A stretch of DNA of 35,979 nucleotides, from positions 1-35,979 of the forward strand of contig CAZZMU010000001.1 of assembly GCA_964655345.1 (NCBI GenBank). Direction: 5' to 3'. Each line of letters begins with the position of its first letter. Positions within the stretch are counted from its first letter, which is position 1. Shown here in pieces: positions 16,904 through 32,607 of the stretch. This stretch comes from an uncultured Clavibacter sp. GTDB taxonomy: Bacteria > Actinomycetota > Actinomycetes > Nanopelagicales > Nanopelagicaceae. Below the pieces are notes generated by a model, which worked only from the letters and a program-made list of their open reading frames with translations, did no database searches and was not told where the DNA came from. The position numbers and the translations under genes were made by a program.

Positions 16904-17316
16904 GGTGTGACCTTTTCTGGAGCGTCGGCGTTAACTGAAGGTGAGATATCAAGGAATGTTGGTGTGCCGCTAGGAACCATGCCTAGAGAAATAGCTCGCG
17001 CGGCGAGGGCTTCAGAAGTGGATAAGCGTGCAACTTCGCGCAGCGCGGCTTCCCGGTCTTCGTTAATTGCGATGGCCTCAAGTTTAAGTTCGCGAATTCG
17101 CACTGCATCATTTCCAAGAAGGATGTTAATGCCGAGCAAACCAAGCAATCCGGTAATTAAGATCGCTGCAAGAACTCCATAGAACACGTTATCTGTTGCT
17201 TGTTGCCCAGCGACTGGTCGAAGTTCGGGCACAAGTTTGAGTACAACTTGGGAAGATTTCTTGACAACTGCCTTACGCGAACGTTCAAAGGCTGGTGCGA
17301 GAGCTGATAGCGCCAT
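16900..17316 (-). CDS. ftsL: FtsL-like septation membrane protein
   Basis: 138 aa. Single TM segment (VFYGVLAAILITGLLGLLGINILLG) followed by a helical segment (IRELKLEAIAINEDREAALREVARL). Sits between rsmH and ftsI with overlaps at both ends. Called by position and topology only. Confidence 0.55.
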   Translation of the reverse strand: MALSALAPAFERSRKAVVKKSSQVVLKLVPELRPVAGQQATDNVFYGVLAAILITGLLGLLGINILLGNDAVRIRELKLEAIAINEDREAALREVARLSTSEALAARAISLGMVPSGTPTFLDISPSVNADAPEKVTP

Positions 17317-18263
17317 TAGATTGCCACCCGCTCTATCGCACGCAGTCTGACGGATTGGGAACGTGAATTTTCTTCGATTTCATTCGGTGTTGCTTTTTCG
17401 CTGCCACGGAAAACTAATTGAAACTTCGCCGCTAATTCAGCAATCTCGATTGGTAGATCACGGGGTGTACGAGACTGCGTCGCAGCAGCAAAGAATTTCT
17501 TTACGATCTTGTCTTCAAGTGATTGGAAGGACATCACAACCATCCGACCACCAATCGCAAGACGTTCCATAGCACGAGGAATCGCTCTTTCAAGAACAGC
17601 TAATTCTTGATTCACTTCAATTCGCAGCGCCTGAAATGTGCGCTTTGCAGGATTTCCGCCAACGCGACGAGTAGCTGCAGGAATGCTTCTTTTTACGAGT
17701 TCTGCAAGATCCGAGGTATTTTTAAGTGCACCGGAATTTCGAGCTTCGATAATGTTGTCGACGATTCGGGTCGCAAATCTTTCCTCGCCATATTCACGAA
17801 TCACTCTTACTAAGTCATTTCGCGAGTATGAGTCCAGCACATCTTGCGCTGTCATTCCTTGTGACTGGTCCATTCTCATATCCAGCGGCGCGCTGTGAGA
17901 GTAGGAAAAACCACGCTCTGATTGATCAAGCTGTAGAGATGAAACTCCGAGATCGAAAAGGATTCCATCAACAAAAGTCAGACCGAGCTTGTCGAGAACT
18001 GAAGGCATCTCGTCATAAATTGCGTGAATAATTGTGACCCGATTGTGGAATATGTTCAGACGATCTTGAGCTTTGGAAATCGCACTTTGGTCGCGATCAA
18101 GACCGACGATTCTTAATTGAGGAAACTTCTCAAGGAGTGCGTAGGAGTGGCCGCCTAATCCAAGAGTGGCATCAACGACGACAGGTGAAGAAGATTTTTC
18201 AATTGCTGGAGCAAGAAGCGTGATGCAGCGATCTAACATCACAGATGTGTGCTCCGCCTTCAT
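17316..18263 (-). CDS. rsmH: 16S rRNA (cytosine1402-N4)-methyltransferase
   Basis: HTSVMLDR..., DATLGLGGHS and FDLGVSSLQLD motifs. Start set at ATG 18263 (MKAEHTSV), which is preceded by the strong SD GAAGGAGGGGAAG. The ORF-track start at 18278 is a TTG inside that SD. Confidence 0.92.
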   Translation of the reverse strand: MKAEHTSVMLDRCITLLAPAIEKSSSPVVVDATLGLGGHSYALLEKFPQLRIVGLDRDQSAISKAQDRLNIFHNRVTIIHAIYDEMPSVLDKLGLTFVDGILFDLGVSSLQLDQSERGFSYSHSAPLDMRMDQSQGMTAQDVLDSYSRNDLVRVIREYGEERFATRIVDNIIEARNSGALKNTSDLAELVKRSIPAATRRVGGNPAKRTFQALRIEVNQELAVLERAIPRAMERLAIGGRMVVMSFQSLEDKIVKKFFAAATQSRTPRDLPIEIAELAAKFQLVFRGSEKATPNEIEENSRSQSVRLRAIERVAI

Positions 18264-18316
18264 CTTCCCCTCCTTCAACTTTCTCGTTATTTCTTAGTAA
18301 CTTCCTTTTTAACTTT

Positions 18317-18418
18317 CTCTCTCCTCTGGTCACCGCCGGCCGACGGATCTGGGGGGTTAAACGGCGCCGGGGAAGGGGCGTCGCTTAGTTGAAGGTCGGC
18401 GGTGGCCACAAGAGAGAT
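18317..18418 (-). promoter_or_regulatory. GC-rich structured RNA leader between mraZ and rsmH (possibly the actinobacterial mraW RNA motif)
   Basis: Outer arms 18328-18337 (ggtcaccgcc) and 18398-18407 (ggcggtggcc) pair with one mismatch and are extended by CU/AG runs. Inner hairpin 18361-18384 is acggcgcc/ggcgtcgc with an 8-nt loop. GC content is clearly above the surroundings. Confidence 0.4.
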
Positions 18419-18424
18419 CTGCCC

Positions 18425-18856
18425 CTAGAAGAGGCCTGGAAATACCTCCTCAGAAACATCGGCAAATCCTTTTTCACGATCTTTGAGGTAGCTCTTCCAC
18501 GCTTTGGAATCCCAGATTTCAACGCGAGTATTTGCACCAATAACAACGCATTCTTTTTCGAGATCTGCATATTCACGTAATCCACTTGGAATTGTGACGC
18601 GACCTTGTTTATCTGGAATTTCGTCATGCGCACCGGCAAACATCACACGCATGTAATCGCGAGCTGCTTTTGCAGTGAGTGGCGCTTGTTTTAACTGCTC
18701 TGTGATGCGAGCAAATTCAGTTGTTGGAAAAACAAAGAGACAACGTTCTTGTCCTTTTGTAATTACTAATCCTGATGCCAATTCATCACGGAATTTCGCG
18801 GGAAGAATCAATCGACCTTTGTCATCAAGACGAGGTTCATGGGTGCCAAGAAACAT
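18425..18856 (-). CDS. mraZ: transcriptional regulator MraZ
   Basis: [26 protein letters not shown] and a second DKQGRVTIP repeat (two SpoVT/AbrB-like halves). ATG 18856 is preceded by the GGGGAGG SD. The ORF-track start at 18880 is an upstream TTG. Confidence 0.92.
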
Positions 18857-18883
18857 GTGAACCTCCCCGTCTTGCCTCAAACC

Positions 18884-18901
18884 GCAGAACCCCCGTTCTG
18901 C
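18884..18901 (-). promoter_or_regulatory. perfect 7-bp inverted repeat GCAGAAC-N4-GTTCTGC in the mraZ leader (GAAC-N4-GTTC core)
   Basis: Read directly: gcagaac(18884-18890) cccc gttctgc(18895-18901), 28-45 nt upstream of the mraZ ATG. Confidence 0.35.
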
Positions 18902-18904
18902 TTA

Positions 18905-18954
18905 ATTCCCCACTTTACTCCCTTTTACTCCATTTTCAACCACCCTACTCCATC
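18905..18954 (-). promoter_or_regulatory. five phased TGGNG-type direct repeats (candidate MraZ operator)
   Basis: The minus strand reads GATGGAGTAG GGTGGTTGAA AATGGAGTAA AAGGGAGTAA AGTGGGGAAT. Positions 3-7 of each 10-mer are TGGAG/TGGTT/TGGAG/GGGAG/TGGGG. Confidence 0.45.
18912..18939 (-). promoter_or_regulatory. candidate sigma-A promoter of mraZ/dcw (TTGAAA-N16-TAAAGT)
   Basis: Minus strand: TTGAAA at 18939..18934 and TAAAGT at 18917..18912. It is embedded in the repeat array. Sequence match only. Confidence 0.3.
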
Positions 18955-19002
18955 ATGACGCGGGGGCCCAAGGCGTTCTCTCCACTGCCTGATTTGGGGC
19001 AT

Positions 19003-19026
19003 AAAAAAACCCGCCACGAAGGCGGG
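19003..19026 (-). terminator. rho-independent terminator after the DUF3040 gene
   Basis: Minus strand: CCCGCC-TTCGT-GGCGGG followed by TTTTTTT (plus-strand A-run 19003-19009). It starts 19 nt after the stop at 19045. Confidence 0.75.
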
Positions 19027-19044
19027 TAGAAAGTGAGGACTTAC

Positions 19045-19410
19045 TTATTCATCAAGGTTGCGTCGATCCCAACGCTCTTCAAATCGGGCGCTCCACTTCG
19101 AACCACCCTTAGGGGCGCGAGGTGCGGTCGCCTTGGAGACCATCCCATTCATCAAGCCACCGAGATTGGAGATAGCCAAGACCGCTCCAACCAGCGAGAG
19201 GATGAAGCCTGCAATTCCCAATGGTGGCGTCTGGGAGATCAATCCGCCGAAGAGAACAAAGATTCCAATGACGATGAGGCCAAAACCCGCAACGACTCGG
19301 GAACGACTGGGGGTCTTGCCGCTAAACGTCGAAATGAGGCGGGGGTCATCGGCTGCAAGAGCTTCTTCCATCTCCGCCAAGAGACGTTTTTCGTGCTCAG
19401 AAAGTGGCAT
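19045..19410 (-). CDS. DUF3040 family membrane protein
   Basis: MPLSEHEKRLLAEMEEALAADDPRLIS followed by two TM segments, the hallmark DUF3040 layout. It sits in the slot upstream of mraZ, as in many Actinobacteria. The start could also be GTG 19419. Confidence 0.75.
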   Translation of the reverse strand: MPLSEHEKRLLAEMEEALAADDPRLISTFSGKTPSRSRVVAGFGLIVIGIFVLFGGLISQTPPLGIAGFILSLVGAVLAISNLGGLMNGMVSKATAPRAPKGGSKWSARFEERWDRRNLDE

Positions 19411-19466
19411 GGCGCCCACAATAGTAGAGCGACGGAATTGTGGAAAGTCGAATCGGGGTGAAGAAA

Positions 19467-20669
19467 CTAGTAATTGTCTGGGCTTTCACGTGATGGCTCT
19501 TCATCCTCGCCAACGAGTCTCGCTGGCAACACAGAACCGCGCCCAAATCTCATGATTGCTCGATCGATAGCGGCTTGAGCTTCACGCCACCCAATTTCAC
19601 GCTCCCCTAGCTCTAATTGTTCGACCGCTCCGGTCTCATCAGAAAGGTTCTCTAGAGATACGCCAAGCAAGCGGATTCGTGCGCCATCAATTTTGAGAGC
19701 AAGAAAGAGTTCCTTTGCGATCTCGTAAATCTCATGCGTTCCATTGATGGGTAGCGCCACAGTCTTCGAGCGAGTGATGGTTGTGAAATCTGAAAAACGC
19801 ACTTTCAGTCCAATTGTCTTACTTCTCAATTCTCTCTTTCTTAAACGATGAGTGGCTCGTTCCGTGAGTCGTAACAGTTCACGGAAAATCTCTTCGCGAT
19901 CTTCTAAATCATAGGAGAACGTTTCGGCTGCGCTAATGCTCTTCTCCGGCGCATCAGGAACAACTTCTCGATAATCACGAGCCCAGGCCAATTCATAAAG
20001 CGCAACTCCTGCGCTTTCACCGAGGGCACGTTTGAGAGTTTCGATTGGAGTGTGAGCGATATCTGCAACGGTGCGTAGCCCCAATCTTTGGAGTTCTTCA
20101 TTAGTTTTCGGACCCACTCCCCAAATTTCGTTGACAGGGAGTGGATGGAGAAATGTCAGTATTCGATCGTGTGCGATTTCTAGCACTCCGTCAGGTTTGC
20201 AACGACCTGATGCCAATTTAGCGATGAACTTAGTCGTAGATATCCCAACAGAGCAGGTTATTTTCTCTTGATCCGATACTCGCTTTCGGATTGCTTGTGC
20301 GATCTCTCGACCGCTTCCGAATAAACGACGTGATCCTGTGACATCAAGAAAAGCTTCATCAAGTGAGAGTGGTTCAACGTATGGCGTGTACTCAAAGAAG
20401 ATCTCCATCACCCGTCGCGAAACCTCGGAATATCGTTCGTGATCAGGCGGAATAAAGATTGCGGTGGGGGCCATTCGTTGTGCGCGAGCAACAGGCATAG
20501 CAGCGCGGATACCGAATTTGCGAGCTGCGTAATTTGCAGAGAGGACTACACCACGTGAGCCAGCGCCCACAACTAATGGTTTTCCACGATATTGGGGGTA
20601 ATCAAGTTCAGAGACTGATGCAAAGAATGCATCCATATCTACATGGAGAATCGTGGAGTGTTCAGGCAT
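19467..20669 (-). CDS. dinB: DNA polymerase IV (Y-family, catalytic residues intact)
   Basis: ILHVDMDAFFASVSE and LSLDEAFLDVTG (catalytic D, D/E and steric-gate F present), plus IWGVGPKT. Start set at ATG 20669 (or GTG 20672), 4 nt after the dnaE2 stop. The longer ORF to 20753 overlaps dnaE2. Confidence 0.9.
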   Translation of the reverse strand: MPEHSTILHVDMDAFFASVSELDYPQYRGKPLVVGAGSRGVVLSANYAARKFGIRAAMPVARAQRMAPTAIFIPPDHERYSEVSRRVMEIFFEYTPYVEPLSLDEAFLDVTGSRRLFGSGREIAQAIRKRVSDQEKITCSVGISTTKFIAKLASGRCKPDGVLEIAHDRILTFLHPLPVNEIWGVGPKTNEELQRLGLRTVADIAHTPIETLKRALGESAGVALYELAWARDYREVVPDAPEKSISAAETFSYDLEDREEIFRELLRLTERATHRLRKRELRSKTIGLKVRFSDFTTITRSKTVALPINGTHEIYEIAKELFLALKIDGARIRLLGVSLENLSDETGAVEQLELGEREIGWREAQAAIDRAIMRFGRGSVLPARLVGEDEEPSRESPDNY

Positions 20670-20673
20670 CACA

Positions 20674-23600
20674 TCACTCACAAACCGCGAGATTACGCCA
20701 CTTTTCATAAGCAGCTGATAATTCCCATGCGCCTGTGGCGCGGATAGAAACACCGCGTGGTCCAGTACGACGTATCTCGCCGCGAACTAATAAGAGCCTT
20801 GAGTTGTAAAGAGTCTCGGCGCATGTACGTTGCATATCTTCAAAGAATGTCGCATCGCTACATCCATGTCCGTCATCGAGCGTTAAGAACATAACTCGTT
20901 TACCGGATCGAACAGGCGGTGTTTGGAGCGCGACTTTTACTCCAGCGACAAGGACTGAGGATTTTGAACGTTGGCGTAACAAATCGCTGGATTTGATAGC
21001 GCCGATCTGGTTGAGGAATTCAGAGTAAAACTCAATCATGTGATGAGAGATGTCCATGCCTAGGAATTCGATTTCATGAGTGACCCGTTCGTATGCTTTT
21101 AAATCTGGTAGGCCAGTCTTTGATAGTGGTGGCGTAAAACCAAAAGTGAGTTGAGAGCCTCCAATCCGTGAGAGTGATTGTGAGGCAGACCATTTATAGA
21201 GATCATTGAGGTGTAGTAATAAATCGCGGCGATTGAGTTCTGAGGAGTAGAGCGAATCGAAAGCTCCGACCATAAGTAAGGCTTCGCATGTCGGTCGACT
21301 AACGCTGCTACGGTGTACGAAATCTGCGATATCGATAAATGGTCGATGAGTGATGATGGCATCGACTTCAGCGCTTGAGATGCCACTGATATCAGTTAGC
21401 GCGATGCGGATCTGATTTTCGCCTTCGACGCGATATGTGCGATCGGAGAGGTTGATGTCAATCGGTGCGATGGTAAGACCACATTGTCGAACCTCATCCA
21501 AAATCAATCGTTTGGGGTACATCCCAGGTTCATGAGTAAGGACTCCGGCAAGAAATGCAGCAGGATGGTGAGTTTTGAGCCAGGCTGATTGATAAGTAGG
21601 AAGAGCGAAGGCTGCAGCATGGGCTTTGCAGAAACCAAAAGAAGCAAAAGCGCGTAATACATCCCAAACTTTGGTGATTACATCTAGCGGATATCCGCGC
21701 GCAGTAGCAGCAGGGAAGAACCAATCGCAGACTTCTTGTTGCCCTTCTCTATGACCAAGAGCTCGCCGCTTCTCATCAGCTTCAGCCAGTGTGATTCCAC
21801 CTAAAGTGGCGATGATTTCGATGACTTGTTCGTGAAAGACGACAACGCCTTCGGTGTCATCGAGAATCTCGCGCAGATCAGGATGGAATATTTCGCGTGA
21901 AGCCCAACCTTGGCGGGCGTTAAGAAATGGAGTGATCATGTCGCTTTTCACTGGACCTGGGCGGAAGAGTGAAATATCAATGATCAAATCGGTAAAAGTC
22001 TCAGGAGCGAACTTTCCAACAAGTTCACGCTGGCCGGGGCTTTCAATCTGGAATAGCCCCAGAGTCTTCGTGGATTGGATTAATTCAAAAGTCTTTTTAT
22101 CATCGAGTGGAATGGAGTCAAGATTCACAACGGTTTTTGTGGTGCGCTCAATTTCAGAGACCGCATAAGCCAACGAAGATTGCATCCGCACGCCGAGAAT
22201 GTCGAGTTTAAGAAGTCCGATTGCTTCTACATCATCTTTATCCCATTGGACCATCGGGTAATTACTGGCATTTTTCTCAATCGGGGCTCGGTCATATAAA
22301 CCGCCATCAGAGATCACGACAGCGCATGGATGCATCGCGAGATTGCGTGGCAGCCCATCAAGTTTTTCTGCGATGCCAATCGCCATCTTCCAGGTTGAGG
22401 AAGTGAGGTTGAGGTTACGAAGTTCAGGTAAGTTCGATAGCGATTGAGAGATATTGCGGGCCCGAATATGTGGCAGAGATTTAGCGACTAAATCAATCTC
22501 CATGGGAGGTAGTGAAAGCGCAGCGCCAACATCGCGGATTGCGTGGCGAGCACGGTAAGTATCGAACATCGCAACCGTTGCGCACCGCTCTTGATAAGCA
22601 TCGAAGACTTGGTCGTAGATCTCAAGACGTCGCGCTGATTCAACATCGATATCAATATCAGGAAGTGCGCTACGTAGCGGAGAACAGAAACGTTCCATCA
22701 ATAGTCCAAGTGATAAAGGTTCAACGCCAGAAATACCTAAGAGATGACAGACCAGTGAACCAGCGCCGCTACCGCGAGCTGCGACTCGAATTCCACTAGC
22801 GCGAGCGCGATCGGTGATGTCAGCAACGGTTAAGAAATAAGACTCGTACCCCAAATGCTCGATGATGGAGAGTTCTTTTTCGAGACGTTCGTGAACATCA
22901 GGGCGAGAGTGGCCGTATCTCCAGTCGATGCCAGCTGTTGCTCGATTGCGAAGTTGGGCAGTGAGTTCGTGGTGATCGCGCGCTCCTACTACATGAGGCT
23001 CAGGCAAATGGATCGAACCAATGCCGATATCGTCGCGTGGCGATAATCGAGCCCGGTCAGCCCATTCGTGAGTGGTGTTGAGTAACTTCTTCCAACGCCG
23101 CTCCCCCGCAGCAAGTGAGATTTTTTCAGCAAGCGATTCCATCTCTTCTGTTGATTTAAGGAAGGCTTCTGCGTTCTTGCGTTCGATGATGTTCTTGTGA
23201 AGTGGAAGTAAATGGCGCGTGGCATCAAGAACGTCAGCAACGGGTGCATCCTCACGAGTGCGCATCCGAGCTGCATTAGTGAGAACTGCAGGGAAATCAT
23301 GGTCACGCGCAAAGCCCAACATCCGAGCGGCATGAATCGTAGATTTTGGTCCATCGCCATAAACCAGATGTGAGACGCATTCGATTGCTTGGTCGAGGAA
23401 TAGTTCGCGAGTTGAGTTAAAGAGAGCAAGAGATTTATCGTAGCGGCGCGAAGTAAGAGCACGACCAATCTCAGAGTCAGGGCCGTATAGAGCGAGAAGA
23501 TGAGTTGTGTAGCGCGAGTGTTCTTGAAGAAATGCGAGATTACATGGTGCGCCATATCTCTTAAGTTCGGTAACAATCCTTATAAGAGATGACCAACCTT

Positions 23601-23847
23601 CGCCAGGAGTTGCAATCAGAGTCATGCGAGTTTGATTTTCGTACTCGATATCAACTCCTAATATCGGAGCAATCTGATTTTCGATACAACTCTGGGTGAA
23701 GCGAATTGCGCCAGCTAAGCCATCGCGATCAGTCAAAGCTAAAGAATCCATTCCATATTCGCGGGCTTGTTCGACTAAAAGATGTGGCAGGGTTGTGCCA
23801 TATTTAAATGAGAAGCCGCTAGCAAGATGAAGATGAGTAAAGCTCAT
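20674..23847 (-). CDS. dnaE2: error-prone DNA polymerase III alpha-like subunit DnaE2
   Basis: 1057 aa. N-terminal MSFTHLHLASGFSFKYGTT...LALTDRDGLAGAIRF (DnaE2-style PHP domain), FCKAHAAAFA, and a size typical of DnaE2 rather than about 1180-aa DnaE1. The operon carries a LexA box. Confidence 0.88.
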   Translation of the reverse strand: MSFTHLHLASGFSFKYGTTLPHLLVEQAREYGMDSLALTDRDGLAGAIRFTQSCIENQIAPILGVDIEYENQTRMTLIATPGEGWSSLIRIVTELKRYGAPCNLAFLQEHSRYTTHLLALYGPDSEIGRALTSRRYDKSLALFNSTRELFLDQAIECVSHLVYGDGPKSTIHAARMLGFARDHDFPAVLTNAARMRTREDAPVADVLDATRHLLPLHKNIIERKNAEAFLKSTEEMESLAEKISLAAGERRWKKLLNTTHEWADRARLSPRDDIGIGSIHLPEPHVVGARDHHELTAQLRNRATAGIDWRYGHSRPDVHERLEKELSIIEHLGYESYFLTVADITDRARASGIRVAARGSGAGSLVCHLLGISGVEPLSLGLLMERFCSPLRSALPDIDIDVESARRLEIYDQVFDAYQERCATVAMFDTYRARHAIRDVGAALSLPPMEIDLVAKSLPHIRARNISQSLSNLPELRNLNLTSSTWKMAIGIAEKLDGLPRNLAMHPCAVVISDGGLYDRAPIEKNASNYPMVQWDKDDVEAIGLLKLDILGVRMQSSLAYAVSEIERTTKTVVNLDSIPLDDKKTFELIQSTKTLGLFQIESPGQRELVGKFAPETFTDLIIDISLFRPGPVKSDMITPFLNARQGWASREIFHPDLREILDDTEGVVVFHEQVIEIIATLGGITLAEADEKRRALGHREGQQEVCDWFFPAATARGYPLDVITKVWDVLRAFASFGFCKAHAAAFALPTYQSAWLKTHHPAAFLAGVLTHEPGMYPKRLILDEVRQCGLTIAPIDINLSDRTYRVEGENQIRIALTDISGISSAEVDAIITHRPFIDIADFVHRSSVSRPTCEALLMVGAFDSLYSSELNRRDLLLHLNDLYKWSASQSLSRIGGSQLTFGFTPPLSKTGLPDLKAYERVTHEIEFLGMDISHHMIEFYSEFLNQIGAIKSSDLLRQRSKSSVLVAGVKVALQTPPVRSGKRVMFLTLDDGHGCSDATFFEDMQRTCAETLYNSRLLLVRGEIRRTGPRGVSIRATGAWELSAAYEKWRNLAVCE

Positions 23848-23859
23848 GGCGTAAAAAAG

Positions 23860-24195
23860 TTATGCAGGACGAGATGTGGGACGAATACGCCACAAGTTAA
23901 AAGGGGGTTGGCCATAAGGGTTTGGGCTCGCAGACAAATCGGGAACTGATTCAAGACGTTCTATTTCAAAAGTTTTCATTACGCCGATAGGAGCAGCCTC
24001 GACTCTCCAGAGAATTCGTGAACCATCATCGGGCCGAAAGAAACCATCGCTAGCGCGGTTCCACCAGCCACCAGATTCATGCCACGAAGAGAGGATTGAA
24101 TGAATCCGAAAACGCTGGCCATTGTGGGTGAACTCGATCGGTTCACCGCCAGCCAGAAAGATTTCGGGGCGCGGGGTATCTAGATTTTCGAACAT
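23860..24195 (-). CDS. small (111 aa) protein resembling the C-terminal module of ImuB
   Basis: The ORF ends 12 nt upstream of dnaE2. NGQRFRIHSILSSWHESGGWW...GFFRPDDGSRILWRVE resembles, from memory, the ImuB C-terminal G-x2-H-x-V...ERI-x2-EWW...RDYYRVED-x2-G-x-R-x-WLFR block. Start set at ATG 24195 because the GTG at 24231 lies upstream of the predicted promoter. Confidence 0.5.
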   Translation of the reverse strand: MFENLDTPRPEIFLAGGEPIEFTHNGQRFRIHSILSSWHESGGWWNRASDGFFRPDDGSRILWRVEAAPIGVMKTFEIERLESVPDLSASPNPYGQPPFNLWRIRPTSRPA

Positions 24196-24203
24196 TTGTT
24201 CGA
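24188..24203 (-). promoter_or_regulatory. LexA (SOS) box TCGAAC-N4-GTTCGA
   Basis: tcgaacatttgttcga is a perfect match to the actinobacterial/mycobacterial SOS box consensus. It overlaps the ATG at 24195..24193 of the first gene of the dnaE2 operon. Confidence 0.8.
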
Positions 24204-24225
24204 ACTCTAGCGAGGTCCCCCGACA
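24204..24225 (-). promoter_or_regulatory. RecA-NDp/PafBC-type promoter motif TGTCGGGG-N8-TAGAGT
   Basis: The minus strand reads TGTCGGGG GACCTCGC TAGAGT, against the mycobacterial consensus tTGTCRgtg-N8-TAnnnT. The -10 element abuts the LexA box. Confidence 0.5.
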
Positions 24226-24287
24226 CGGCACAAGCGACCTAAACCGTTACCAAAGCGACACCCGCGCCACACTCTCGCGTTACGCGA

Positions 24288-26348
24288 TTGGCCTACATCC
24301 TGTGTGAGTATCCGCCCGTGATCACTCATACATCCACCTCAAAGGCCCAGGGTCGCTCCCTCCGCCTTCGAATCTCATCTGTCGTAAGCGCCCTCGCACT
24401 TTCGACTTCCGCACTCGTGGTGCTCACTTCCCCGCAGGTTACTGCCGCTGATGCATACGCAGTTCCTGCAGCGCCATCCATCGTTCGGGCATATGTAACC
24501 AACAAGGGAATCCAAGTTCGGTTCAATCCCGTCACAGCAAGTCCTGCAGTTACAAATTATGTTGTTAGCGCTGGGCAAGGTTCATGCCCGGTAATTCTTC
24601 CTGCTAACACAACAGGATCAGTAACTCTGCCAGTTCTTGAAGGCCAAACATCCGCCAATGTCACAGTTCAAGCTGTCAACGCCTACGGATTCTCCGCTCC
24701 TGCAAAATGGGCAACAACATTTACCGCAACAAGTCTTGCAAAGGCTTCACGTTCATCTTTGAAGAATATTCAATTACTCCAACTCAGCGACTTCCATGGT
24801 GCAATTGAAGGAACTTCAACAAATGCTGGAACTGCTCTGCTCACGACTGCATTTGCTGCAGATCGCAAAGCAGTAGCTTCAACCTTTACTCTCTCAACCG
24901 GAGATAACTTTGGTGCGGCTCCAGCAATCTCAAGCCAATTCGAAGAAATTCCAACAGTTGAATCAATGAACTCAATGAAGTTCGATGTATCGACTTTTGG
25001 TAATCATGAACACGATCGCAACCTTGCACATGTTCAGAAAGTAATTGGGCTATCTGATTTTCAGTGGGTTGCCTCAAACTACAGCTCACTTGAGCCTTTG
25101 AAGTCTGGTACAAAATCAGCAAAGAGCTATGTCATTATTGATCGCGGCGATATCAAAGTTGGTGTTGTAGGCGCTAATACTGAAGAAACTCCAGAAGTTG
25201 TATTCCCTGGCAACCTCGACTACACCGATGCATCAGGAGCGAAAAAGACTATTGCGATCTCCAACACCGTAGCTGGCGTAAACAAAGCAATTGTTGATGC
25301 CAAAGCTGCGGGCGCAAATCTTGTCGTCGCTCTCATTCACGAAGGTTGGTCTGAGAATGCCGATGGTGTCGCTAAAGGCAATCTCATCAATATCGCTAAA
25401 GGCATTAAGGGTGCCGACGTTATTTTCGGAGGTCACAGCCACCAGCTCTACAGCAGCGTTAATGCTGCCGCAAATGCCCGTGCAAACACCACGTTGGTAG
25501 CGGAAGTTCCCAACGCTGGCGTTTCCTATAACCGGGTTCAGGTATGTCTCAATCCTGGTAACAACAAAGTTGTCGGAACCTCAATCGAAAACGTCACAAC
25601 ATCTGCGATTTCGAAATTGACTCCTGATGCGACCGCTGCAGCACTTGTAAAGAAATACAAGGATCAACTTGTTTCTAAGCTTGACGTAAAGATTGGTCAA
25701 GTCTCTGACTTGTTCCCACGTGGTGGATCACCAGCGGTCGAACGCTCTGGTGAAACTCCCATGGGTAACTATTTAGCTGATTTGATGAAGAAGGAATTGA
25801 AGACTGACTTTGCTCTTACGAATGGTGGCGGTCTACGCGATACCTTCCCAGCCGCAACCTACAAAGTTGTTGATGCAACTTATAAGCGCCCTGGTGCAGG
25901 AGCTACTGGTCCATTTGATGTGACCCTAGGAGACGCAATCTCAGTACTCCCATTCGGTAACTCAGTTGCTGTTGCAACGATTACCGGAACTCAACTGTGG
26001 GCTGCACTTGAAAATGGTGTCTCGCAATTCCCATCTGGTGGTCGATTCCCACAGATCTCCGGATTTAAATTCTCATTTGACTCAACGAAAGCAGTTGGTT
26101 CCAGAATTACTGCTGTAACACGAGTTGATGGGACTGCGATCGCTAAGGATGCTAAGACCTACACCGTAGCTACCAATGACTTTATGCTTTACGGTGGCGA
26201 CGGTTACACGATGCTCAATCCTTCTACCGCTAAATTCCCTGGCAAATTGCTGCTAGATATTTTGGTAGACGGAATTAAGGCTGATCTTGCCGCAAAGCGA
26301 GTCACTCAGACTCCTAAGGCTGATGGCCGCATCACCAAAGTTGGCTAA
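24288..26348 (+). CDS. secreted bifunctional metallophosphatase/5'-nucleotidase with an N-terminal FN3-like domain
   Basis: Signal-peptide-like RSLRLRISSVVSALALSTSALVVLTSPQVTAADA, then a beta-rich ~90-aa module. Calcineurin-like motifs follow (LSDFHG, GDNFG, GNHEHD, IHEGW, GGHSH), then the 5'-nucleotidase C-terminal domain (NGGGLRD, TNDFMLYGGDGY). The start codon is uncertain (TTG 24288 or GTG 24318). Confidence 0.85.
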   Translation: MAYILCEYPPVITHTSTSKAQGRSLRLRISSVVSALALSTSALVVLTSPQVTAADAYAVPAAPSIVRAYVTNKGIQVRFNPVTASPAVTNYVVSAGQGSCPVILPANTTGSVTLPVLEGQTSANVTVQAVNAYGFSAPAKWATTFTATSLAKASRSSLKNIQLLQLSDFHGAIEGTSTNAGTALLTTAFAADRKAVASTFTLSTGDNFGAAPAISSQFEEIPTVESMNSMKFDVSTFGNHEHDRNLAHVQKVIGLSDFQWVASNYSSLEPLKSGTKSAKSYVIIDRGDIKVGVVGANTEETPEVVFPGNLDYTDASGAKKTIAISNTVAGVNKAIVDAKAAGANLVVALIHEGWSENADGVAKGNLINIAKGIKGADVIFGGHSHQLYSSVNAAANARANTTLVAEVPNAGVSYNRVQVCLNPGNNKVVGTSIENVTTSAISKLTPDATAAALVKKYKDQLVSKLDVKIGQVSDLFPRGGSPAVERSGETPMGNYLADLMKKELKTDFALTNGGGLRDTFPAATYKVVDATYKRPGAGATGPFDVTLGDAISVLPFGNSVAVATITGTQLWAALENGVSQFPSGGRFPQISGFKFSFDSTKAVGSRITAVTRVDGTAIAKDAKTYTVATNDFMLYGGDGYTMLNPSTAKFPGKLLLDILVDGIKADLAAKRVTQTPKADGRITKVG

Positions 26349-26968: not shown

Positions 26969-27718
26969 GTGGAGATCCTGCTCGCTATCGTCTGTGGAAT
27001 TGGAATCGGATCTGTACTCGGATATGTCGGAGCCGGTGGTTCCATGCTGGCAGTACCGGCATTTATCTATATTTTTGGATTAACTCCAGTTGCCGCAACA
27101 ACCGCATCTTTGATTGTCGTGTTCGTCGGGGCAGCATCAGGAGCTTTGCCAAAGTTACGGCGGAACGAAATTCTTATTAAAGAAGCGCTCGTGATTTGGG
27201 CGATTGGCCTAACTACAAATCTCACTGGCGCTTACTTTCTCCCGCAGATTCCCGAGAAAGTTGTGCTGACCGGTTTTGCACTCGTCCTAGTCACGGCCGG
27301 TCTTTCGATGTTGATTCCTGGACCTTCACAATCTACTGAGCGAAAAGTTTCTCCGATTGCTCTCATTGTGATTTCGCTCGTTATCGGTGCGCTTACTGGA
27401 TTATTTGGAATCGGCGGCGGCTTCTTGGCAATTCCAATATTGATTCTCTTTTACAACGTTGCGCCAGCTAGGGCAGCAGGAACATCACTCTTCATCATCA
27501 TGATCAACACGTTGACTGGATTCTTCGCCCACTTCAGACATTGGGATGAAGTTAATTGGCTCATTCCTTCAATTATTGCCCTCGTTGCTCTCATGGTCTC
27601 GCGTTACGCATCACACCATAGTTCTCGCCTCTCCCCCGTGACATTGAAACGTTCCTTTGCATATTTCGTTTTTGCCATTGCATTATTTACCTTACTAGAA
27701 ACCTGGGTGGTCACATGA
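26969..27718 (+). CDS. TauE/SafE (DUF81) family anion permease
   Basis: 249 aa, about 8 TM segments. Two internal halves each carry a G-x-GGG/GAGGS motif (YVGAGGSMLAVP; FGIGGGFLAIP), typical of TauE/SafE. GTG start. Confidence 0.8.
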   Translation: MEILLAIVCGIGIGSVLGYVGAGGSMLAVPAFIYIFGLTPVAATTASLIVVFVGAASGALPKLRRNEILIKEALVIWAIGLTTNLTGAYFLPQIPEKVVLTGFALVLVTAGLSMLIPGPSQSTERKVSPIALIVISLVIGALTGLFGIGGGFLAIPILILFYNVAPARAAGTSLFIIMINTLTGFFAHFRHWDEVNWLIPSIIALVALMVSRYASHHSSRLSPVTLKRSFAYFVFAIALFTLLETWVVT

Positions 27719-28353
27719 ACGTACGAAAATTGTCATTCGAGTTTTTCGGTACCGCAACTTTGCTTATTGCTGTTGTTGGTTCATCTTTTATGGCTTCATA
27801 CCTCAAGGCGGATTGGGCTTTGGGATTATTGATTAATGCTTCGGTGACGGCTTCCGTATTGGCAATTATTATTAAAGTCGGCGCGCCCATAAGCGGTGCT
27901 CATTTCAACCCCGTCGTATCGCTGACATCGTGGTTGCTGAAGAAATCCACTTTTGGACAATTTATTTCATATTCTGTCGCACAAGTTGTAGGTGCTGTTA
28001 TCGGTGTACTTATAGCCAATGCAATGTTTTCATCTGACTTTATTGGCTCAAGTTCAATGCAACGAAGTGGCACCGGACTGTTTATAGGAGAGATTGTCGC
28101 AACCATCGGTCTGGTTTATCTCGCACTTTCATCGAATGAAAAGAGCGCATGGAAGCTCATTCCACTCTGGATTTTTGCGGCTTACTTCTTCACCTCGTCA
28201 ACATCTTTTGCTAATCCCGCTGTCACAATCTCGCGAGTGCTCACCGAAGCTCCAGCTGGAATCGAACTTAGCTCTGTCGGCGCATTTATCCTTGCTCAAA
28301 TCATTGGTGCGCTGATTGCACTTGTTTTATGGAAAGCTGAGAAAAATGACTAA
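27715..28353 (+). CDS. MIP/aquaporin family channel (AqpS-like)
   Basis: 212 aa, 6 TM segments. SGAHFNPVVSL and FANPAVTISR are the two NPx half-helix motifs. ATGA overlap with the permease and an 8-nt overlap with arsC. Confidence 0.85.
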   Translation: MNVRKLSFEFFGTATLLIAVVGSSFMASYLKADWALGLLINASVTASVLAIIIKVGAPISGAHFNPVVSLTSWLLKKSTFGQFISYSVAQVVGAVIGVLIANAMFSSDFIGSSSMQRSGTGLFIGEIVATIGLVYLALSSNEKSAWKLIPLWIFAAYFFTSSTSFANPAVTISRVLTEAPAGIELSSVGAFILAQIIGALIALVLWKAEKND

Positions 28354-28741
28354 GCGATCGTCTGTACTTTTTGTATGCGTTCATAATGCGGGTCGTTCTC
28401 AAATGGCGGCGGCATATTTGACTCACTTTGCCGGAGATTGGGTGGAGGTACGAAGTGCTGGATCTGCCCCCGCTAGTTCGATTAACCCCGCGGTTGTAGC
28501 GGCTATGTTGGAAGAAGGAATCGACATCAGCAAGGAAATTCCCAAGGTACTTACGACGTCGGCGGTCGAACAATCCGATGTCGTCATCACTATGGGTTGT
28601 GGAGATGCATGTCCTTTCTTCCCAGGAAAGCGATATTTGGATTGGAAATTGAATGACCCTGCTGGACAAGGCGTTGATGCGGTCCGGCCCATACGCGATG
28701 AGATCAAGTCGCTAGTAAAGGAACTCATCACAACTCTCTAG
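28346..28741 (+). CDS. arsC: arsenate reductase, LMW-PTPase family
   Basis: VLFVCVHNAGRSQMAAAYL (CX5R(S) P-loop) and ITMGCGDACP. Start set at ATG 28346 (MTKRSSVLF...). Confidence 0.85.
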   Translation: MTKRSSVLFVCVHNAGRSQMAAAYLTHFAGDWVEVRSAGSAPASSINPAVVAAMLEEGIDISKEIPKVLTTSAVEQSDVVITMGCGDACPFFPGKRYLDWKLNDPAGQGVDAVRPIRDEIKSLVKELITTL

Positions 28742-29241: not shown

Positions 29242-30033
29242 ATGTATCCACTTCATCACGAAATATCTGGAACTGGAGAACCGCTAGTTCTCATTCATGG
29301 AATGGGATCAGCTAGTACCGCCTGGAAACCTATCCGGTATGAATTGAATCAAGATTTCACAGTCATCACTGTTGATTTACCTGGCCATGGAAAAACTCCC
29401 TATGTCAAAGGCCAACCTATGGATCCACATTCATTGGGAACTTATGTTCTTGAGCAATTGAATACATTAGGGATTGATCGATTTCATCTTGCTGGTAATT
29501 CACTTGGTGGTTGGGTCTCATTAGAGATGAGCAGCGCTGCACCAGATCGAGTTCGCTCACTCATCGGAATCGCTCCGGCAGGCTTATGGCTCAACCCATA
29601 TAACGCTCGCTACCCTGGCACAGCGGTCGCTCGCTTTCTTGCGCGTTACACAGCGAAGTTGGCGCCGACTGCACTTCACTTTGAAGCGGCCCGCAAATTA
29701 GGTTTTTTTGATGTAAGTCCACGATGGAAAGATTTCAGTTATGAACTCTGTCTTGATGCGACGATGGCCATGTCGACGGCAGAAGGTTATTACCCAGCTT
29801 GGGATGGAATGTTGATGAAACGTTTCGATAGCTTCATTCCTGACAAAATTCCGGTGACAATAATTTTTGGTGATACAGATCGGACGCTTCCTGCAACAAC
29901 GTGCCAAGAGCGTTCGGTTGCACCTAACCACGCGAAGTGGATCATCTTTCCCAACACTGGACATGCACCAATGTGGGATTCTCCTTTAGATGTCATTGAT
30001 GAAATTAAGAAGACAGTCGCACTCGCCTCATGA
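29242..30033 (+). CDS. alpha/beta-fold hydrolase
   Basis: PLVLIHGMGSAS, the nucleophile elbow GNSLGG, and C-terminal GHAPMWDSP. Confidence 0.8.
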   Translation: MYPLHHEISGTGEPLVLIHGMGSASTAWKPIRYELNQDFTVITVDLPGHGKTPYVKGQPMDPHSLGTYVLEQLNTLGIDRFHLAGNSLGGWVSLEMSSAAPDRVRSLIGIAPAGLWLNPYNARYPGTAVARFLARYTAKLAPTALHFEAARKLGFFDVSPRWKDFSYELCLDATMAMSTAEGYYPAWDGMLMKRFDSFIPDKIPVTIIFGDTDRTLPATTCQERSVAPNHAKWIIFPNTGHAPMWDSPLDVIDEIKKTVALAS

Positions 30034-30695
30034 TTCAGATTTATTTCTGGAAAATCCGTCGTCGCCACATTCCCTGGGCGATCGCACGAATGGCACTTGA
30101 TCGAATAACTCTGTGGCGGATGGAAAGTATTTCCTTTTGGAAATTGTTAGGTGCTGGCAAAGGCGAAACTTTTACACCACGCGATGCTGATCCAGTTCGG
30201 TGGGGACTTCTCATTGTCACCAAACAGGGAAGTGGCTCCGATATTCGCGAATCCGCGATAGTTAAACGATGGCGAGCAAAAGCGCTTTCGGAATTCTCTG
30301 CAGACTTAGCTCCGATTTCGATTCATGGATTGTGGTCAAGAAAAGAACCTTTTGCTGGAATTGACAGTGCGGATATGAATTGGAGCGGTACTATCGCTGC
30401 GATTACTCGTGCGCGAATTAAATGGCGTAAAAACTTGATTTTCTGGCGATCAGTACCGCCAGTTACCGCAAGTCTCCACAATTCCAATGGTCTGATTGCC
30501 GCAATCGGGATTGGAGAAGCGCCAATCGGACTTCAGGGAACTTTCTCTTTATGGAGTTCTGCAGATGCCGTTCGCCAATTCGCTTATCGAGGTGAGGCCC
30601 ATAAAGCAGCTATCGCTGCGACCCATCGTGAAAAATGGTACGCGGAGGAGATGTTCGCTCGCTTTGCGGTCACTCGTAGTTCAGGAGATTTGTAA
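30030..30695 (+). CDS. CrtA-like (spheroidene monooxygenase family) protein
   Basis: 221 aa. FWKLLGAGKGETFTPRDADPVRWGLL resembles the conserved FWKL-G-G-G-GFTP block that I recall from CrtA-type carotenoid oxygenases. It lies directly upstream of carotenoid genes. Memory-based call. Confidence 0.5.
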   Translation: MIQIYFWKIRRRHIPWAIARMALDRITLWRMESISFWKLLGAGKGETFTPRDADPVRWGLLIVTKQGSGSDIRESAIVKRWRAKALSEFSADLAPISIHGLWSRKEPFAGIDSADMNWSGTIAAITRARIKWRKNLIFWRSVPPVTASLHNSNGLIAAIGIGEAPIGLQGTFSLWSSADAVRQFAYRGEAHKAAIAATHREKWYAEEMFARFAVTRSSGDL

Positions 30696-30709: not shown

Positions 30710-31516
30710 ATGTCGATTCGCAACTACCGACCTCGGCGTGATGCACGACGCTCTATTTCTCCAACAAAAAATTTCCTGCTAATCACCGTCTTAACAGTTG
30801 CACTTGCGCTACAAATTTCTTATCCACTTGCCGAAGGCGAAACTCTTCGACTCGTAACGATAGCTACCGTGTATTGGGCGGCAGGAGCAATGTTGCTCCA
30901 TGCCCTCTTCGCATATGGATGGAACTATGCGCTGAGATTTCTGTTCATCACATTCCTTTATGCACTCTTAATTGAACAAATCGGAATGCGCACAACATGG
31001 CCGTTCGGAAGCTATGAATATTCGCCAACCTTGGGTTATCAGATTTACGGTGTTCCGCTTGTCGTGCCTTTTGCTTGGGTGATGATGGCCCATCCAATTT
31101 TCATTGCGGCGCGCAGGCTGGCACCGAAATTGGTATTCCTTGTCGGTGGTTATGGATTAATGGCATGGGATTTATTCCTCGATCCACAGATGGTTTCAGC
31201 AAGTCGGTGGACGTGGGAGATTTCTGGAAGAACAGTTCCATTCCAACCAGAAATACCGCTCTCTAATGCCTTTGGTTGGTTGCTCGCAGGAATGGGTTTA
31301 ATGGCGTTACTCAACATCGCTCTGCCAAAAGAACGTCGCTCTCTTGGTTACAGCAGAGCCGTTCCAGAATTCTTTCTAGCTTGGACCTGGATTGGTGGCG
31401 TGATTGCGAATCTATTTTATTTTGATCGCCCCGGAGTCGCTTTCATTGGTGGAATATCTCTTGGCTTGATTGTCATTAGCTATTTTATTTCCGTGAAGTT
31501 TGGCCGTCGAGACTAA
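30710..31516 (+). CDS. carotenoid biosynthesis membrane protein (CruF-like, Caroten_synth/DUF422 family)
   Basis: 268 aa polytopic protein. WPFGSYEYSPTLGYQIYGVPLVVPFAWVMM resembles the family core. Flanked by GT2 and CrtI-family genes. Confidence 0.5.
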   Translation: MSIRNYRPRRDARRSISPTKNFLLITVLTVALALQISYPLAEGETLRLVTIATVYWAAGAMLLHALFAYGWNYALRFLFITFLYALLIEQIGMRTTWPFGSYEYSPTLGYQIYGVPLVVPFAWVMMAHPIFIAARRLAPKLVFLVGGYGLMAWDLFLDPQMVSASRWTWEISGRTVPFQPEIPLSNAFGWLLAGMGLMALLNIALPKERRSLGYSRAVPEFFLAWTWIGGVIANLFYFDRPGVAFIGGISLGLIVISYFISVKFGRRD

Positions 31517-32607
31517 TGCTTGATTGGGCTCAAGGGATTTCTTCGCTACTTGTTTTGTTTATAGCCGGAATCTGCCTCTCCAATCTTCTGCTGGTGAGGC
31601 GCATTTCAGCCCAAAATCTTGAGGATGTAACTTCCTCAGTTTCGATTCTAGTTCCGCTGCGAAATGAAGCCACAAACGCGAGTGAAGTAATCGAGAGTCT
31701 CCTACATCAGAACCGCCTGAATGATTATGAGGTGATTGCACTTAATGACGGATCTGACGATGGCACCGAAAAAATACTTCAAAGCATTTCTCATCCGCGA
31801 TTTAGTTACATTGATGGCGAGCAGTTACCTGATGGATGGCTGGGAAAGAATTTTGCCTGTCACCAACTCGCATTGAGATCTCATGGTGAGATATTGGTTT
31901 TTGTTGATGCTGATGTCCGTCTCCATCCTCTAGCAGTGAATTCTTCCATTCATTCTATGAATCGATGGAAGTGGAGTTTTATCTCTCCATATCCACGACA
32001 AATAGCAATCTCATTTATCGAGCGCTTAGCTCAACCTCTTCTGCAGTGGTCGTGGTTTTCAACTCTGCCACTTCGTCTAGCTGAGAATCTAAGAAAGCCA
32101 TCAATGATTGTCGCTAATGGCCAATTTTTTATAGTTGCTAAGGCGGCTTACATTAAGTCAGGAGGACACGAGTCAATCAAGAATGAGGTCTTAGATGATC
32201 TAGAACTCGCTCGCTCCCTGATCAAGTCTGGCTTTAAGGGCCATGTAGCCGAAGCATCAGCGATTGCAGAATGTCGAATGTACTCGCAGCCAAAAGAACT
32301 CTTTGAAGGTTATTCGAAGTCGCAATGGCGTGCATTCGGAAATCCACTTGGCGCATTATTTGCTTCCCTACTCCTAATACTCACGTCAATTTACCCACTA
32401 CTTTCAGGACTTTCGGGAAACCTCAATGGTTGGTTCGGTTACTTTGCCGTAGTAGGAACTCGAATTCTTGTAGGCGTGAAAACTCGATCGACGTTAAGCA
32501 CCGCTTTTCTGCATCCATTCAGTGCAGCTCTCTGGATTTTCCTCATCGCTCTTTCGTGGTACCGGAAGATGAATGGAACTCTTCAGTGGCGAGGCAGAAC
32601 GGTATGA
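31516..32607 (+). CDS. family 2 glycosyltransferase (membrane-anchored)
   Basis: SILVPLRNEA...YEVIALNDGSDDGT and VFVDADVRL (DxD), with C-terminal TM segments. Confidence 0.8.
   Translation: MLDWAQGISSLLVLFIAGICLSNLLLVRRISAQNLEDVTSSVSILVPLRNEATNASEVIESLLHQNRLNDYEVIALNDGSDDGTEKILQSISHPRFSYIDGEQLPDGWLGKNFACHQLALRSHGEILVFVDADVRLHPLAVNSSIHSMNRWKWSFISPYPRQIAISFIERLAQPLLQWSWFSTLPLRLAENLRKPSMIVANGQFFIVAKAAYIKSGGHESIKNEVLDDLELARSLIKSGFKGHVAEASAIAECRMYSQPKELFEGYSKSQWRAFGNPLGALFASLLLILTSIYPLLSGLSGNLNGWFGYFAVVGTRILVGVKTRSTLSTAFLHPFSAALWIFLIALSWYRKMNGTLQWRGRTV

Follow-up and report, generated by a model that had tools for sequence, protein, structure and literature searches.

A probable LexA-controlled imuB-C - dnaE2B - dinB operon in a streamlined freshwater actinobacterium

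Split mutasomes and the locus among them

DnaE2-based mutasomes are responsible for damage-induced mutagenesis and the evolution of drug resistance in mycobacteria and other bacteria, and their split versions reveal the modular assembly of the ImuB scaffold. The free-standing form of ImuB-C, with its connections to DinB and DnaE2, was defined by Aravind et al. 2013 (PMC3765255), and ImuA-less variants were described by Timinskas & Venclovas 2019 (PMC6511836). A 2026 survey (PMC12926913) describes a system of "DnaE2B + apparently active PolY + stand-alone ImuB-C + RecA" in Actinobacteria only and reports a good, confident tetramer model for the Tessaracoccus lapidicaptus system. Experimental evidence comes from the Deinococcus deserti cassette lexA-imuY-imuB-C-dnaE2, for which RecA-dependent UV mutagenesis has been demonstrated (PMC8072749); of the split versions, it alone has a role in UV mutagenesis that is proven genetically.

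The locus studied here lies in a window of 35,979 nt (the whole stretch of DNA that was analysed). The host is a Nanopelagicaceae (acI) actinobacterium, a member of a low-GC freshwater lineage with genomes of 1.2-1.4 Mb. The locus is probably a LexA-repressed imuB-C - dnaE2B - dinB(polY) operon belonging to the published putative-mutasome class DnaE2B-PolY-[ImuB-C]-RecA. The first-pass annotation had not recognised the architecture as described; because PMC3765255, PMC6511836 and PMC12926913 already define such split modules computationally, it is not new. The locus is thus no new kind but a clean minimal example, with one Y-family gene per genome, a fixed site and a perfect LexA operator.

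As in the T. lapidicaptus system (PMC12926913), an apparently active PolY-core protein with a RecA-N-terminus-like tail, a free ImuB-C and an apparently non-canonical DnaE2 are all encoded in the operon, and the class, to which the window locus probably belongs as well, is restricted to Actinobacteria and found in genomes without ImuA and ImuB. The two differ in the length of DnaE2 (1057 aa in the window, 1277 aa in T. lapidicaptus) and in the number of Y-family genes, which is two in T. lapidicaptus and one in the window's lineage, as judged from sister genomes in the same survey. The LexA box at the start codon is seen at the window locus and is not discussed for T. lapidicaptus in PMC12926913; in a term search of that paper neither LexA nor an SOS box came up.

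The D. deserti cassette likewise combines a free ImuB-C, a Y-family protein and DnaE2 under LexA/RecA control (putative in the window) and has no ImuA. Its ImuY, however, is predicted to lack catalytic activity, while the PolY of the window is intact, and it differs in gene order and in carrying lexA inside the operon, which the window operon does not. The canonical ImuA(ImuA')-ImuB-DnaE2 mutasome of M. tuberculosis, Caulobacter and Pseudomonas also unites an SOS-inducible C-family polymerase (inducibility being predicted in the window), a Y-family organiser (with clamp motif and RecA-N-terminal motif) and an ImuB-C domain, and the operator type of the window locus is that of a Streptomyces canonical cassette. 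By contrast, the canonical cassette has an inactive ImuB that carries ImuB-C as a fused domain, an ImuA and a DnaE2 of the A group, whereas the window's Y-family protein is intact and ends in a RecA-N-terminus-like tail, ImuB-C is a separate ORF and there is no ImuA or ImuA'. Two further arrangements hold one polymerase where the window has two, namely Geobacter sulfurreducens lexA-imuB-C-polY, a free ImuB-C with an active PolY (PMC6511836), and the Arthrobacter-type DnaE2B-[ImuB-C] pairs, a free ImuB-C with DnaE2B alone (PMC12926913).

Three genes and their products

The ORF list of the window holds three minus-strand ORFs (23860..24231, 20674..23847 and 19467..20753; features in Table 1). 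As read from the sequence, the stop of the small gene is followed by 12 nt and the dnaE ATG, and the dnaE stop TGA by 4 nt (TGTG) and the dinB start ATG-CCT-GAA-CAC (MPEH...); the ORFs, sizes and both spacings agree with the first-pass annotation. The gene neighbourhoods of relatives bear out the arrangement, since the small ORF and the array are kept in all informative GTDB loci (those of the 80 related loci in which the contig extends far enough), with invariant three-gene order and at a fixed chromosomal site adjoining DUF3040-mraZ-rsmH.

Table 1. Features of the locus (window coordinates)
Feature	Position	Strand	Basis
Stand-alone ImuB-C / DUF6504 protein, 111 aa	23860..24195	-	Pfam PF20114, hhalign
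DnaE2-type (DnaE2B-like) C-family polymerase, 1057 aa	20674..23847	-	domains, similarity ranking
QLTFGF, residues 899-904, candidate internal beta-clamp motif after (HhH)2 domain	21136..21153	-	gsQL..gF consensus
Y-family polymerase of DinB / PolY-core type, 400 aa counted from M29	19467..20669	-	NCBIfam and Pfam
QLELG, candidate beta-clamp-binding motif in DinB tail	19605..19619	-	eQl.LG consensus, 68 distinct tails
RecA-N-terminus-like motif GWREAQAAIDRAIMRFGRGSVLPARL in DinB tail	19515..19592	-	tail conservation, profile alignment
LexA (SOS) operator TCGAACAAATGTTCGA	24188..24203	-	perfect TCGAAC-N4-GTTCGA match
Candidate -10 TAGAGT (TAnnnT), abutting the operator	24204..24209	-	read from sequence
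Possible -35 TTGTGC, 18-nt spacer to -10	24228-24233	-	read from sequence

The small ORF encodes 123 aa from a GTG or 111 aa from the ATG at 24195. Its product scores 30 bits (E 6.5e-7) with Pfam DUF6504 (PF20114), above the gathering score of 24.2, and this family is also carried by all full-length close homologues (six short or partial matches lack it) and by most of the C-terminal fragments that their sources name 'protein ImuB'. A profile of stand-alone relatives with the window protein first (A2) aligned to a profile of ImuB C-termini (A3) in hhalign with a probability of 96.1% and E 3.2e-9. The small-protein profile also aligned to a single Rhizobium ImuB (E 3.3e-5, at residues 417-463 of 505), while a single actinobacterial ImuB, from Streptomyces, was not significant against the profiles (E 0.08), though at the right place. 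The spacing from G-x-R-x-R-[IV] to the WW pair, counted by hand, is equal in the small protein and the ImuB C-terminus consensus. The likeness to the ImuB C-terminus noted in the first-pass annotation holds in Pfam as well as in profile comparison, and the sequence supports counting the small protein as a free-standing member of the family of ImuB C-terminal domains. Among the best 150 matches listed in an exhaustive HMM search with the close-relative profile, there were only short stand-alone proteins and a few repeat giants and no full-length ImuB; the link to ImuB therefore runs via the separate ImuB-C profile. The published ImuB-C of T. lapidicaptus is 30% identical (E 3e-5).

The small ORF is not a chance reading frame: it has 84 close homologues, its matches form 272 representative clusters (E<=0.001), and GTDB species genomes contain at least 459 confirmed stretches. 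Twenty-six columns are invariant in an alignment of 27 close relatives, and W38, W44, W45 and W102 across 48 sequences, distant ones included. An AlphaFold2 model is all-beta with six strands (pLDDT 82), so that the traits of the domain, a small all-beta fold and conserved tryptophans including a C-terminal one, are present. The fold of ImuB-C is called novel in PMC12926913, and our searches agree with this: in a Foldseek search of PDB with two AlphaFold2 models (pLDDT 71 and 82) no match fell below E 0.8, the weak matches to PARP WGR and a cystatin-like affimer being dismissed as noise, and a PDB sequence search with the stand-alone profile returned a chance DHFR match only (E 0.5). A full-text literature search for 'DUF6504' found no paper.

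The DnaE paralogue comprises PHP, DNA_pol3_alpha, finger, HHH_6 and OB domains and none after the OB fold; its translation shows the motifs PDIDIDV and KLDILG, and its catalytic motifs, like those of DinB, are intact. It stays below the cut-offs of both the NCBIfam DnaE1 model (659.8 bits, cut-off 1002) and the error-prone DnaE2 model NF004225 (630.7 bits, cut-off 939). Identity is 42-45% to dnaE paralogues from Streptomyces, Embleya and an Arthrobacter plasmid and 39% to T. lapidicaptus DnaE2B over the first ~400 residues, which is all that is printed in the supplement, compared with 29% for E. coli DnaE and, among genes annotated 'error-prone DNA polymerase', canonical DnaE2 included, 27-29% in most cases (one partial match reaches 30.7%). 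This similarity ranking fits a DnaE2B-like placement. The consensus gsQL..gF around QLTFGF comes from 68 sequences (67 distinct relatives and the window), and a clamp-binding role is suggested by where DnaE1 has its clamp motif.

The third gene had been read as a DinB with its catalytic residues kept rather than an ImuB, and this reading stands. The translation contains HVDMDAFFASV and SLDEAFLDV, with the DMDAFF and SLDEAF motifs in place, and it passes the NCBIfam Pol IV model NF003015 with 372.7 bits (cut-off 367) as well as the Pfam models IMS, IMS_HHH and IMS_C. It is 48% identical to the published T. lapidicaptus PolY (E 2e-120), tail included. In this tail the conserved QLELG may bind the clamp, and a second conserved element has the consensus GW.eA..AiDrA.aRFG.GSv.PaRL, whose profile resembles the RecA N-terminal helix and FGKGSVM weakly and over a short length (E 1.1e-3, 17 columns); BLASTP and Pfam comparisons of the tail with RecA gave nothing. 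The same motif occurs in the T. lapidicaptus PolY tail, with which the DinB tail is collinear. Both an active-type Y-family polymerase in the same operon and a PolY tail like the RecA N-terminus, as in the class DnaE2B-PolY-[ImuB-C]-RecA, are thus found at the locus.

The cassette had also been noted to lack a gene of the ImuA/RecA fold, and neither Pfam nor tblastn found one in the window: ImuA, ImuA', RecA and ImuB are absent from its long ORFs in Pfam scans, and two ImuA types, RecA and two ImuBs as tblastn queries gave nothing significant in the 36 kb. A 221-aa ORF without a family (30030-30695) was considered as an ImuA' and rejected, as tblastn with ImuA, ImuA' and RecA had no match there. 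Neither Rfam nor a tRNA scan gave any match in the window. The complete genomes of Ca. Planktophila and Ca. Nanopelagicus, of the same family, have one Y-family gene (PolY-core), no DnaE2A and one DnaE2B (PMC12926913); with this single Y-family gene there is therefore no ImuB elsewhere in them. By the same published table a canonical imuA'-imuB pair at another site is not found in these sister genomes and, by analogy, the rest of the present genome probably lacks imuA and imuB too.

The origin of the small gene is a separate matter. The suggestion that an adaptor was split off ImuB and combined with an active Pol IV survives in part: a free ImuB-C does stand beside a DnaE2-type and an intact Y-family polymerase, but the direction of the split is not supported, and PMC6511836 proposes the opposite, with ImuB formed when a PolY and a free ImuB-C fused.

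A LexA operator at the start codon

The operator reads TCGAAC-AAAT-GTTCGA, and the small gene's start codon ATG (24195-24193) falls within its 4-nt spacer. Its form is the one that Davis et al. 2002, a study cited in PMC2897130, reportedly gave as the consensus for the actinobacterial LexA operator, TCGAAC-N4-GTTCGA. The perfect form occurs once in the window; the shorter GAAC-N4-GTTC occurs four times against 0.55 expected. The same box surrounds the start codon at 78 of 79 related loci, and in nearly all box-carrying loci the flank as printed has a TAnnnT hexamer where the window has its candidate -10. Because a strict sigma-70 consensus scan of the region found nothing, the -10 and -35 elements are candidates that we infer. 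The conserved box around the ATG implies that the SOS response controls the operon and that its transcript has no leader or almost none, and an operator fused to the start codon would also fix residues 1-3 of the adaptor (MFE). Neither this arrangement nor a dual role of a sole PolY appears in the ImuB-C literature of PMC3765255, PMC6511836 and PMC12926913.

One machine or two

In the mechanism that we propose, DNA damage would lead via activated RecA to self-cleavage of LexA and to the leaderless or near-leaderless operon transcript. The beta-domain of the free ImuB-C would dock on the PHP domain of DnaE2B, and PolY would provide the contacts to the clamp and to RecA, with RecA in the place of ImuA. 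The thumb of PolY may touch DnaE2B, by analogy with the AlphaFold models published for the T. lapidicaptus tetramer and for mycobacterial ImuA'-ImuB-DnaE2; formation of a four-protein complex is likewise predicted from published AlphaFold models of another species. Both polymerases are presumably active, and with a single Y-family enzyme in a small genome PolY would therefore have a dual role, as ordinary Pol IV and ImuB-like organiser at once. PolY might, for instance, insert opposite the lesion and leave extension to DnaE2B. We tentatively put forward, at somewhat less than even confidence, that the only TLS system of streamlined freshwater Actinobacteria consists of two active polymerases, with DinB doubling as organiser of DnaE2B, a free ImuB-C as PHP adaptor, and the whole switched by a LexA operator that takes in the start codon of a leaderless mRNA.

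The main competitor is that two separate machines are merely co-regulated, ImuB-C serving DnaE2B alone and DinB being an ordinary Pol IV that shares an SOS promoter in a streamlined genome. The Arthrobacter plasmid has DUF6504 and dnaE without PolY and PMC12926913 has a group of DnaE2B whose one link is to ImuB-C; with ImuB-C and DnaE2B but no PolY at such loci, PolY need not belong to the complex. Moreover, ImuB-C directly precedes dnaE2 and not dinB, and DnaE2B has its own candidate clamp motif. We nevertheless consider it unlikely in view of the 4-nt dnaE2-dinB junction, the invariant gene order in all informative loci and the RecA-like PolY tail shared with T. lapidicaptus, for whose system the tetramer model is confident (PMC12926913).

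Considerably less probable is that the small protein is chiefly a damage-sensing DNA-binding module that guides polymerases to lesions instead of a protein-protein adaptor. This function was proposed by Aravind et al. 2013 (PMC3765255), who also found stand-alone ImuB-C with Ku/ligase, photolyase-like and SRAP genes without DnaE2, and the absence of a catalytic residue pattern together with conserved Arg and Trp would suit it. Published models, however, put ImuB-C on the DnaE2 PHP domain and ImuA (PMC12926913), the C-terminal extension of mycobacterial ImuB binds DnaE2 and ImuA' according to work cited at second hand from PMC6511836, and fold searches gave no nucleic-acid-binding fold above noise. 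That the DnaE paralogue is a spare or specialised replicative alpha subunit outside translesion synthesis, with the small ORF as a passenger, is very improbable: its best NCBIfam match is the DnaE1 model, although below cut-off as for DnaE2, and its catalytic motifs are intact, but the LexA operator, the obligate linkage to ImuB-C and a Y-family polymerase, the lack of a domain after the OB fold, the DnaE1 already present in sister genomes (PMC12926913) and the clear constraint on the small ORF in its invariant columns and four tryptophans all speak against it.

As the locus is minimal and comes in hundreds of natural variants, it is well suited to the question of whether an active PolY can stand in for a dead ImuB, and it should lend itself to a study of the interface between ImuB-C and the DnaE2 PHP domain by co-variation or AlphaFold-multimer. 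Our results also indicate that abundant lake bacterioplankton (acI) keep an SOS-inducible pair of mutagenic polymerases despite genome reduction.

The small protein and its two polymerase partners

Re-reading the window bore out the first-pass layout of co-directional genes for a small protein, a DnaE paralogue and a Y-family polymerase, with junctions of 12 nt and 4 nt (see table). The small protein had been suspected, from its motif spacing, to resemble the C-terminus of ImuB. Both the Pfam family DUF6504 (30 bits, cut-off 24.2) and profile comparison confirm this likeness, and Rhizobium-type ImuB C-terminal fragments, named 'protein ImuB' at source, mostly bear PF20114, as the small protein does. 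A profile of 50 stand-alone sequences with the window protein placed first (A2) matched the ImuB C-terminus profile A3 (96.1% probability, E 3.2e-9) over residues 7-70 of the window protein; a narrower stand-alone profile (A1) reached E 1.9e-5 against ImuB C-termini. One full-length Rhizobium ImuB was matched at residues 417-463 of 505 (E 3.3e-5), and one Streptomyces ImuB at E 0.08 only, though at the WW motif near its C-terminus. Counted manually on translation and consensus, the stand-alone and ImuB families have one spacing in common: G-x-R-x-R-[IV], then WW 18 residues past the G. Judged by these matches, the small protein is ImuB-C-like.

An AlphaFold2 model from 48 sequences is all-beta (pLDDT 82, pTM 0.69), and sequence and structure searches returned no significant PDB neighbour, which agrees with the published description of ImuB-C as a beta-barrel of novel fold (PMC12926913). 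An SH3-like barrel was once suggested for ImuB-C by Aravind et al. The stand-alone profile also matches the giant proteins P0103 (2087 aa), P0223 (803 aa) and P0107 (6211 aa); the first two are built of many ~65-residue repeats (...KVEAQYKGKSKFYPGVISRCRLNGTYDIDYDDGEKE...), Tudor/SH3-like in appearance. The giant-protein hits are probably summed weak matches.

The DnaE paralogue comprises PHP, Pol III alpha, finger, (HhH)2 and OB domains, with none beyond the OB fold, and scores below both NCBIfam cut-offs (659.8 vs 1002 for DnaE1; 630.7 vs 939 for canonical error-prone DnaE2). Right behind its (HhH)2 domain lies a conserved gsQL..gF, and in DnaE1 the internal clamp-binding motif sits just after that domain. 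This conserved QL(T/S)(F/L)GF motif is a candidate clamp motif, through which DnaE2B may contact the beta clamp directly, in contrast to mycobacterial DnaE2, which reportedly has no clamp binding of its own.

The third gene had been read as a catalytically intact DinB, and it does encode a complete polymerase, which scores above the cut-off of a Pol IV model (372.7 against 367) and keeps the catalytic motifs DMDAFF and SLDEAF. Its mechanical ORF reaches 20753, overlapping the preceding dnaE gene. Across 68 distinct tails the C-terminus has the consensus eQl.LG.Re.GW.eA..AiDrA.aRFG.GSv.PaRL, after which comes an acidic end. The first element (eQl.LG) resembles a beta-clamp-binding motif and is a candidate for one; the second is collinear with the PolY tail of Tessaracoccus lapidicaptus. 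As a profile, this second element weakly matches the N-terminal helix of RecA together with FGKGSVM (17 columns, E 1.1e-3); BLASTP and Pfam returned no RecA similarity for the tail.

Features of the triad and its surroundings in the window
Feature	Position	Strand	Remarks
Small-protein ORF	23860-24195	minus	111 aa from ATG; 123 aa if started at upstream GTG, 24231
DnaE paralogue ORF	20674-23847	minus	1057 aa
Y-family polymerase ORF	19467-20669	minus	400 aa counted from M29
QL(T/S)(F/L)GF, candidate clamp motif	21136-21153	minus	DnaE2 residues 899-904
LexA box TCGAAC-N4-GTTCGA	24188-24203	minus	perfect; the window's only such actinobacterial box
LexA box plus TAnnnT hexamer	24188-24209	minus	
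GAAC-N4-GTTC palindromes	18887-18898; 482-493; 29438-29449		one precedes the mraZ ORF start by 7 nt
DUF3040-mraZ-rsmH side of triad	17316-19419		
5'-nucleotidase/metallophosphatase gene	24288-26348	plus	secreted-looking
MIP-family channel and low-molecular-weight phosphatase; carotenoid set	27715-28741 and 30710-34124	plus	Caroten_synth, GT2, amine-oxidase/desaturase
ORFs without Pfam family	5333-6118; 30030-30695		first in ftsQ position

A start codon within the LexA operator

The spacer and right half-site of the LexA box read AA-ATG-TTC-GA. The operator thus encloses the small gene's start codon and dictates the first residues, M-F-E. For the same reason MFE begins the close homologues, and longer gene calls among them read '...FE[QH]MFE', the translated operator. 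The embedded arrangement recurs in 78 of 79 testable loci (TCGAAC-A[AT]AT-GTTCGA in 73, a TAGAAC variant in five), and a TAnnnT hexamer adjoins the box in nearly all box-bearing loci. The embedding is missing in more distant relatives; in a canonical Streptomyces cassette the boxes lie upstream of imuA'. We infer an mRNA with no leader, or almost none; LexA would block both its promoter and its start. A precedent for leaderless SOS genes is the leaderless lexA mRNA of M. tuberculosis (PMC2897130). The three other palindromes of the window lack the full TCGAAC/GTTCGA half-sites and are therefore probably not LexA sites.

Conservation and chromosomal site

Scanning GTDB with a sequence pattern, each species represented by one genome, confirmed at least 459 relatives; the named homologues are Candidatus Nanopelagicaceae, acI freshwater Actinobacteria. 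Gene-neighbourhood analysis, as proposed at first pass, found the triad order conserved: among the best 80 loci the small gene precedes the DnaE paralogue in all 80, and the Y-family gene follows wherever the contig is long enough. In most loci with sufficient contig the triad is immediately followed by DUF3040-mraZ-rsmH, with which the dcw cluster begins (DUF3040 seen in 63/80); the dinB stop and the DUF3040 start are only ~45 nt apart. The conserved order and fixed site show that the triad is a vertically inherited chromosomal operon and not a mobile cassette.

The window (GC content ~48%) carries on this flank the dcw genes DUF3040, mraZ, rsmH, ftsI, mur genes, ftsW, ftsZ and sepF, and on the other a 5'-nucleotidase, transporters and carotenoid genes. 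The 5'-nucleotidase gene is oriented divergently to the operon, and its upstream region therefore adjoins the SOS promoter; of the 80 related loci only 30 have the gene here, which marks the flank as variable. The MIP-family channel and the adjacent low-molecular-weight phosphatase resemble an arsenic-resistance pair.

Place among known mutasomes

The first-pass annotation, which had noted the lack of an ImuA/RecA-fold gene, was right on homology and architecture and wrong on novelty. No imuA, imuB, recA or lexA gene was found in the rest of the 36-kb window. Stand-alone ImuB-C copies beside DinB, DnaE2 and other SOS genes were reported when the superfamily was defined (Aravind et al. 2013, PMC3765255), and a 2026 survey, which splits DnaE2 into groups A, B and X and reports ImuA and ImuB to be absent from DnaE2B genomes, has described the DnaE2B-PolY-[ImuB-C]-RecA class computationally (PMC12926913). 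The proposed splitting of the module from ImuB found no support; the published view is fusion, the opposite direction (PMC6511836).

Against the T. lapidicaptus representative, the window PolY is 48% identical (E 2e-120), the small protein 30% (E 3e-5) and DnaE 39% (E 7e-76) over the first ~400 residues, all that the supplement prints. Membership in the class is near certain. The survey table lists Ca. Planktophila dulcis, sulfonica and versatilis and Ca. Nanopelagicus limnes, each with two C-family polymerases (DnaE1 = 1, DnaE2B = 1, DnaE2A = 0) and one Y-family polymerase (PolY-core = 1) (PMC12926913). The suggestion that an imuA'-imuB pair elsewhere might make this an ordinary dnaE2 locus fails for these four sister genomes.

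The triad is likely an SOS-inducible mutasome of this class. The survey modelled the T. lapidicaptus system as a 'good tetramer complex' (PMC12926913), and we lean towards such a complex for the window's proteins. Experimental support is limited to a cousin system, that of Deinococcus deserti, in which imuY, dnaE2 and recA are each required for UV mutagenesis (PMC8072749). The main rival, though unlikely, is that ImuB-C and DnaE2B form one unit while DinB acts separately; ImuB-C plus DnaE2B pairs without PolY exist. On the conjugative plasmid pYA7-1a of Arthrobacter sp. YA7-1 (3707-7996), a DUF6504 gene lies immediately 5' of a DnaE2B-like dnaE (43.8% identical to the window DnaE), with an imperfect LexA-like box ~33 nt ahead of the annotated start; next, on the opposite strand, comes a gene for an SOS-response-associated peptidase, and there is no Y-family gene. 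We give little credence to ImuB-C as a DNA-damage sensor. Least credible of all, in view of the LexA box and the linkage of the genes, is a role of the DnaE paralogue as a spare replicative polymerase. The locus belongs to a system class so far described computationally; the start codon embedded in the operator and the constant position next to the dcw cluster add a little to the ImuB-C literature.
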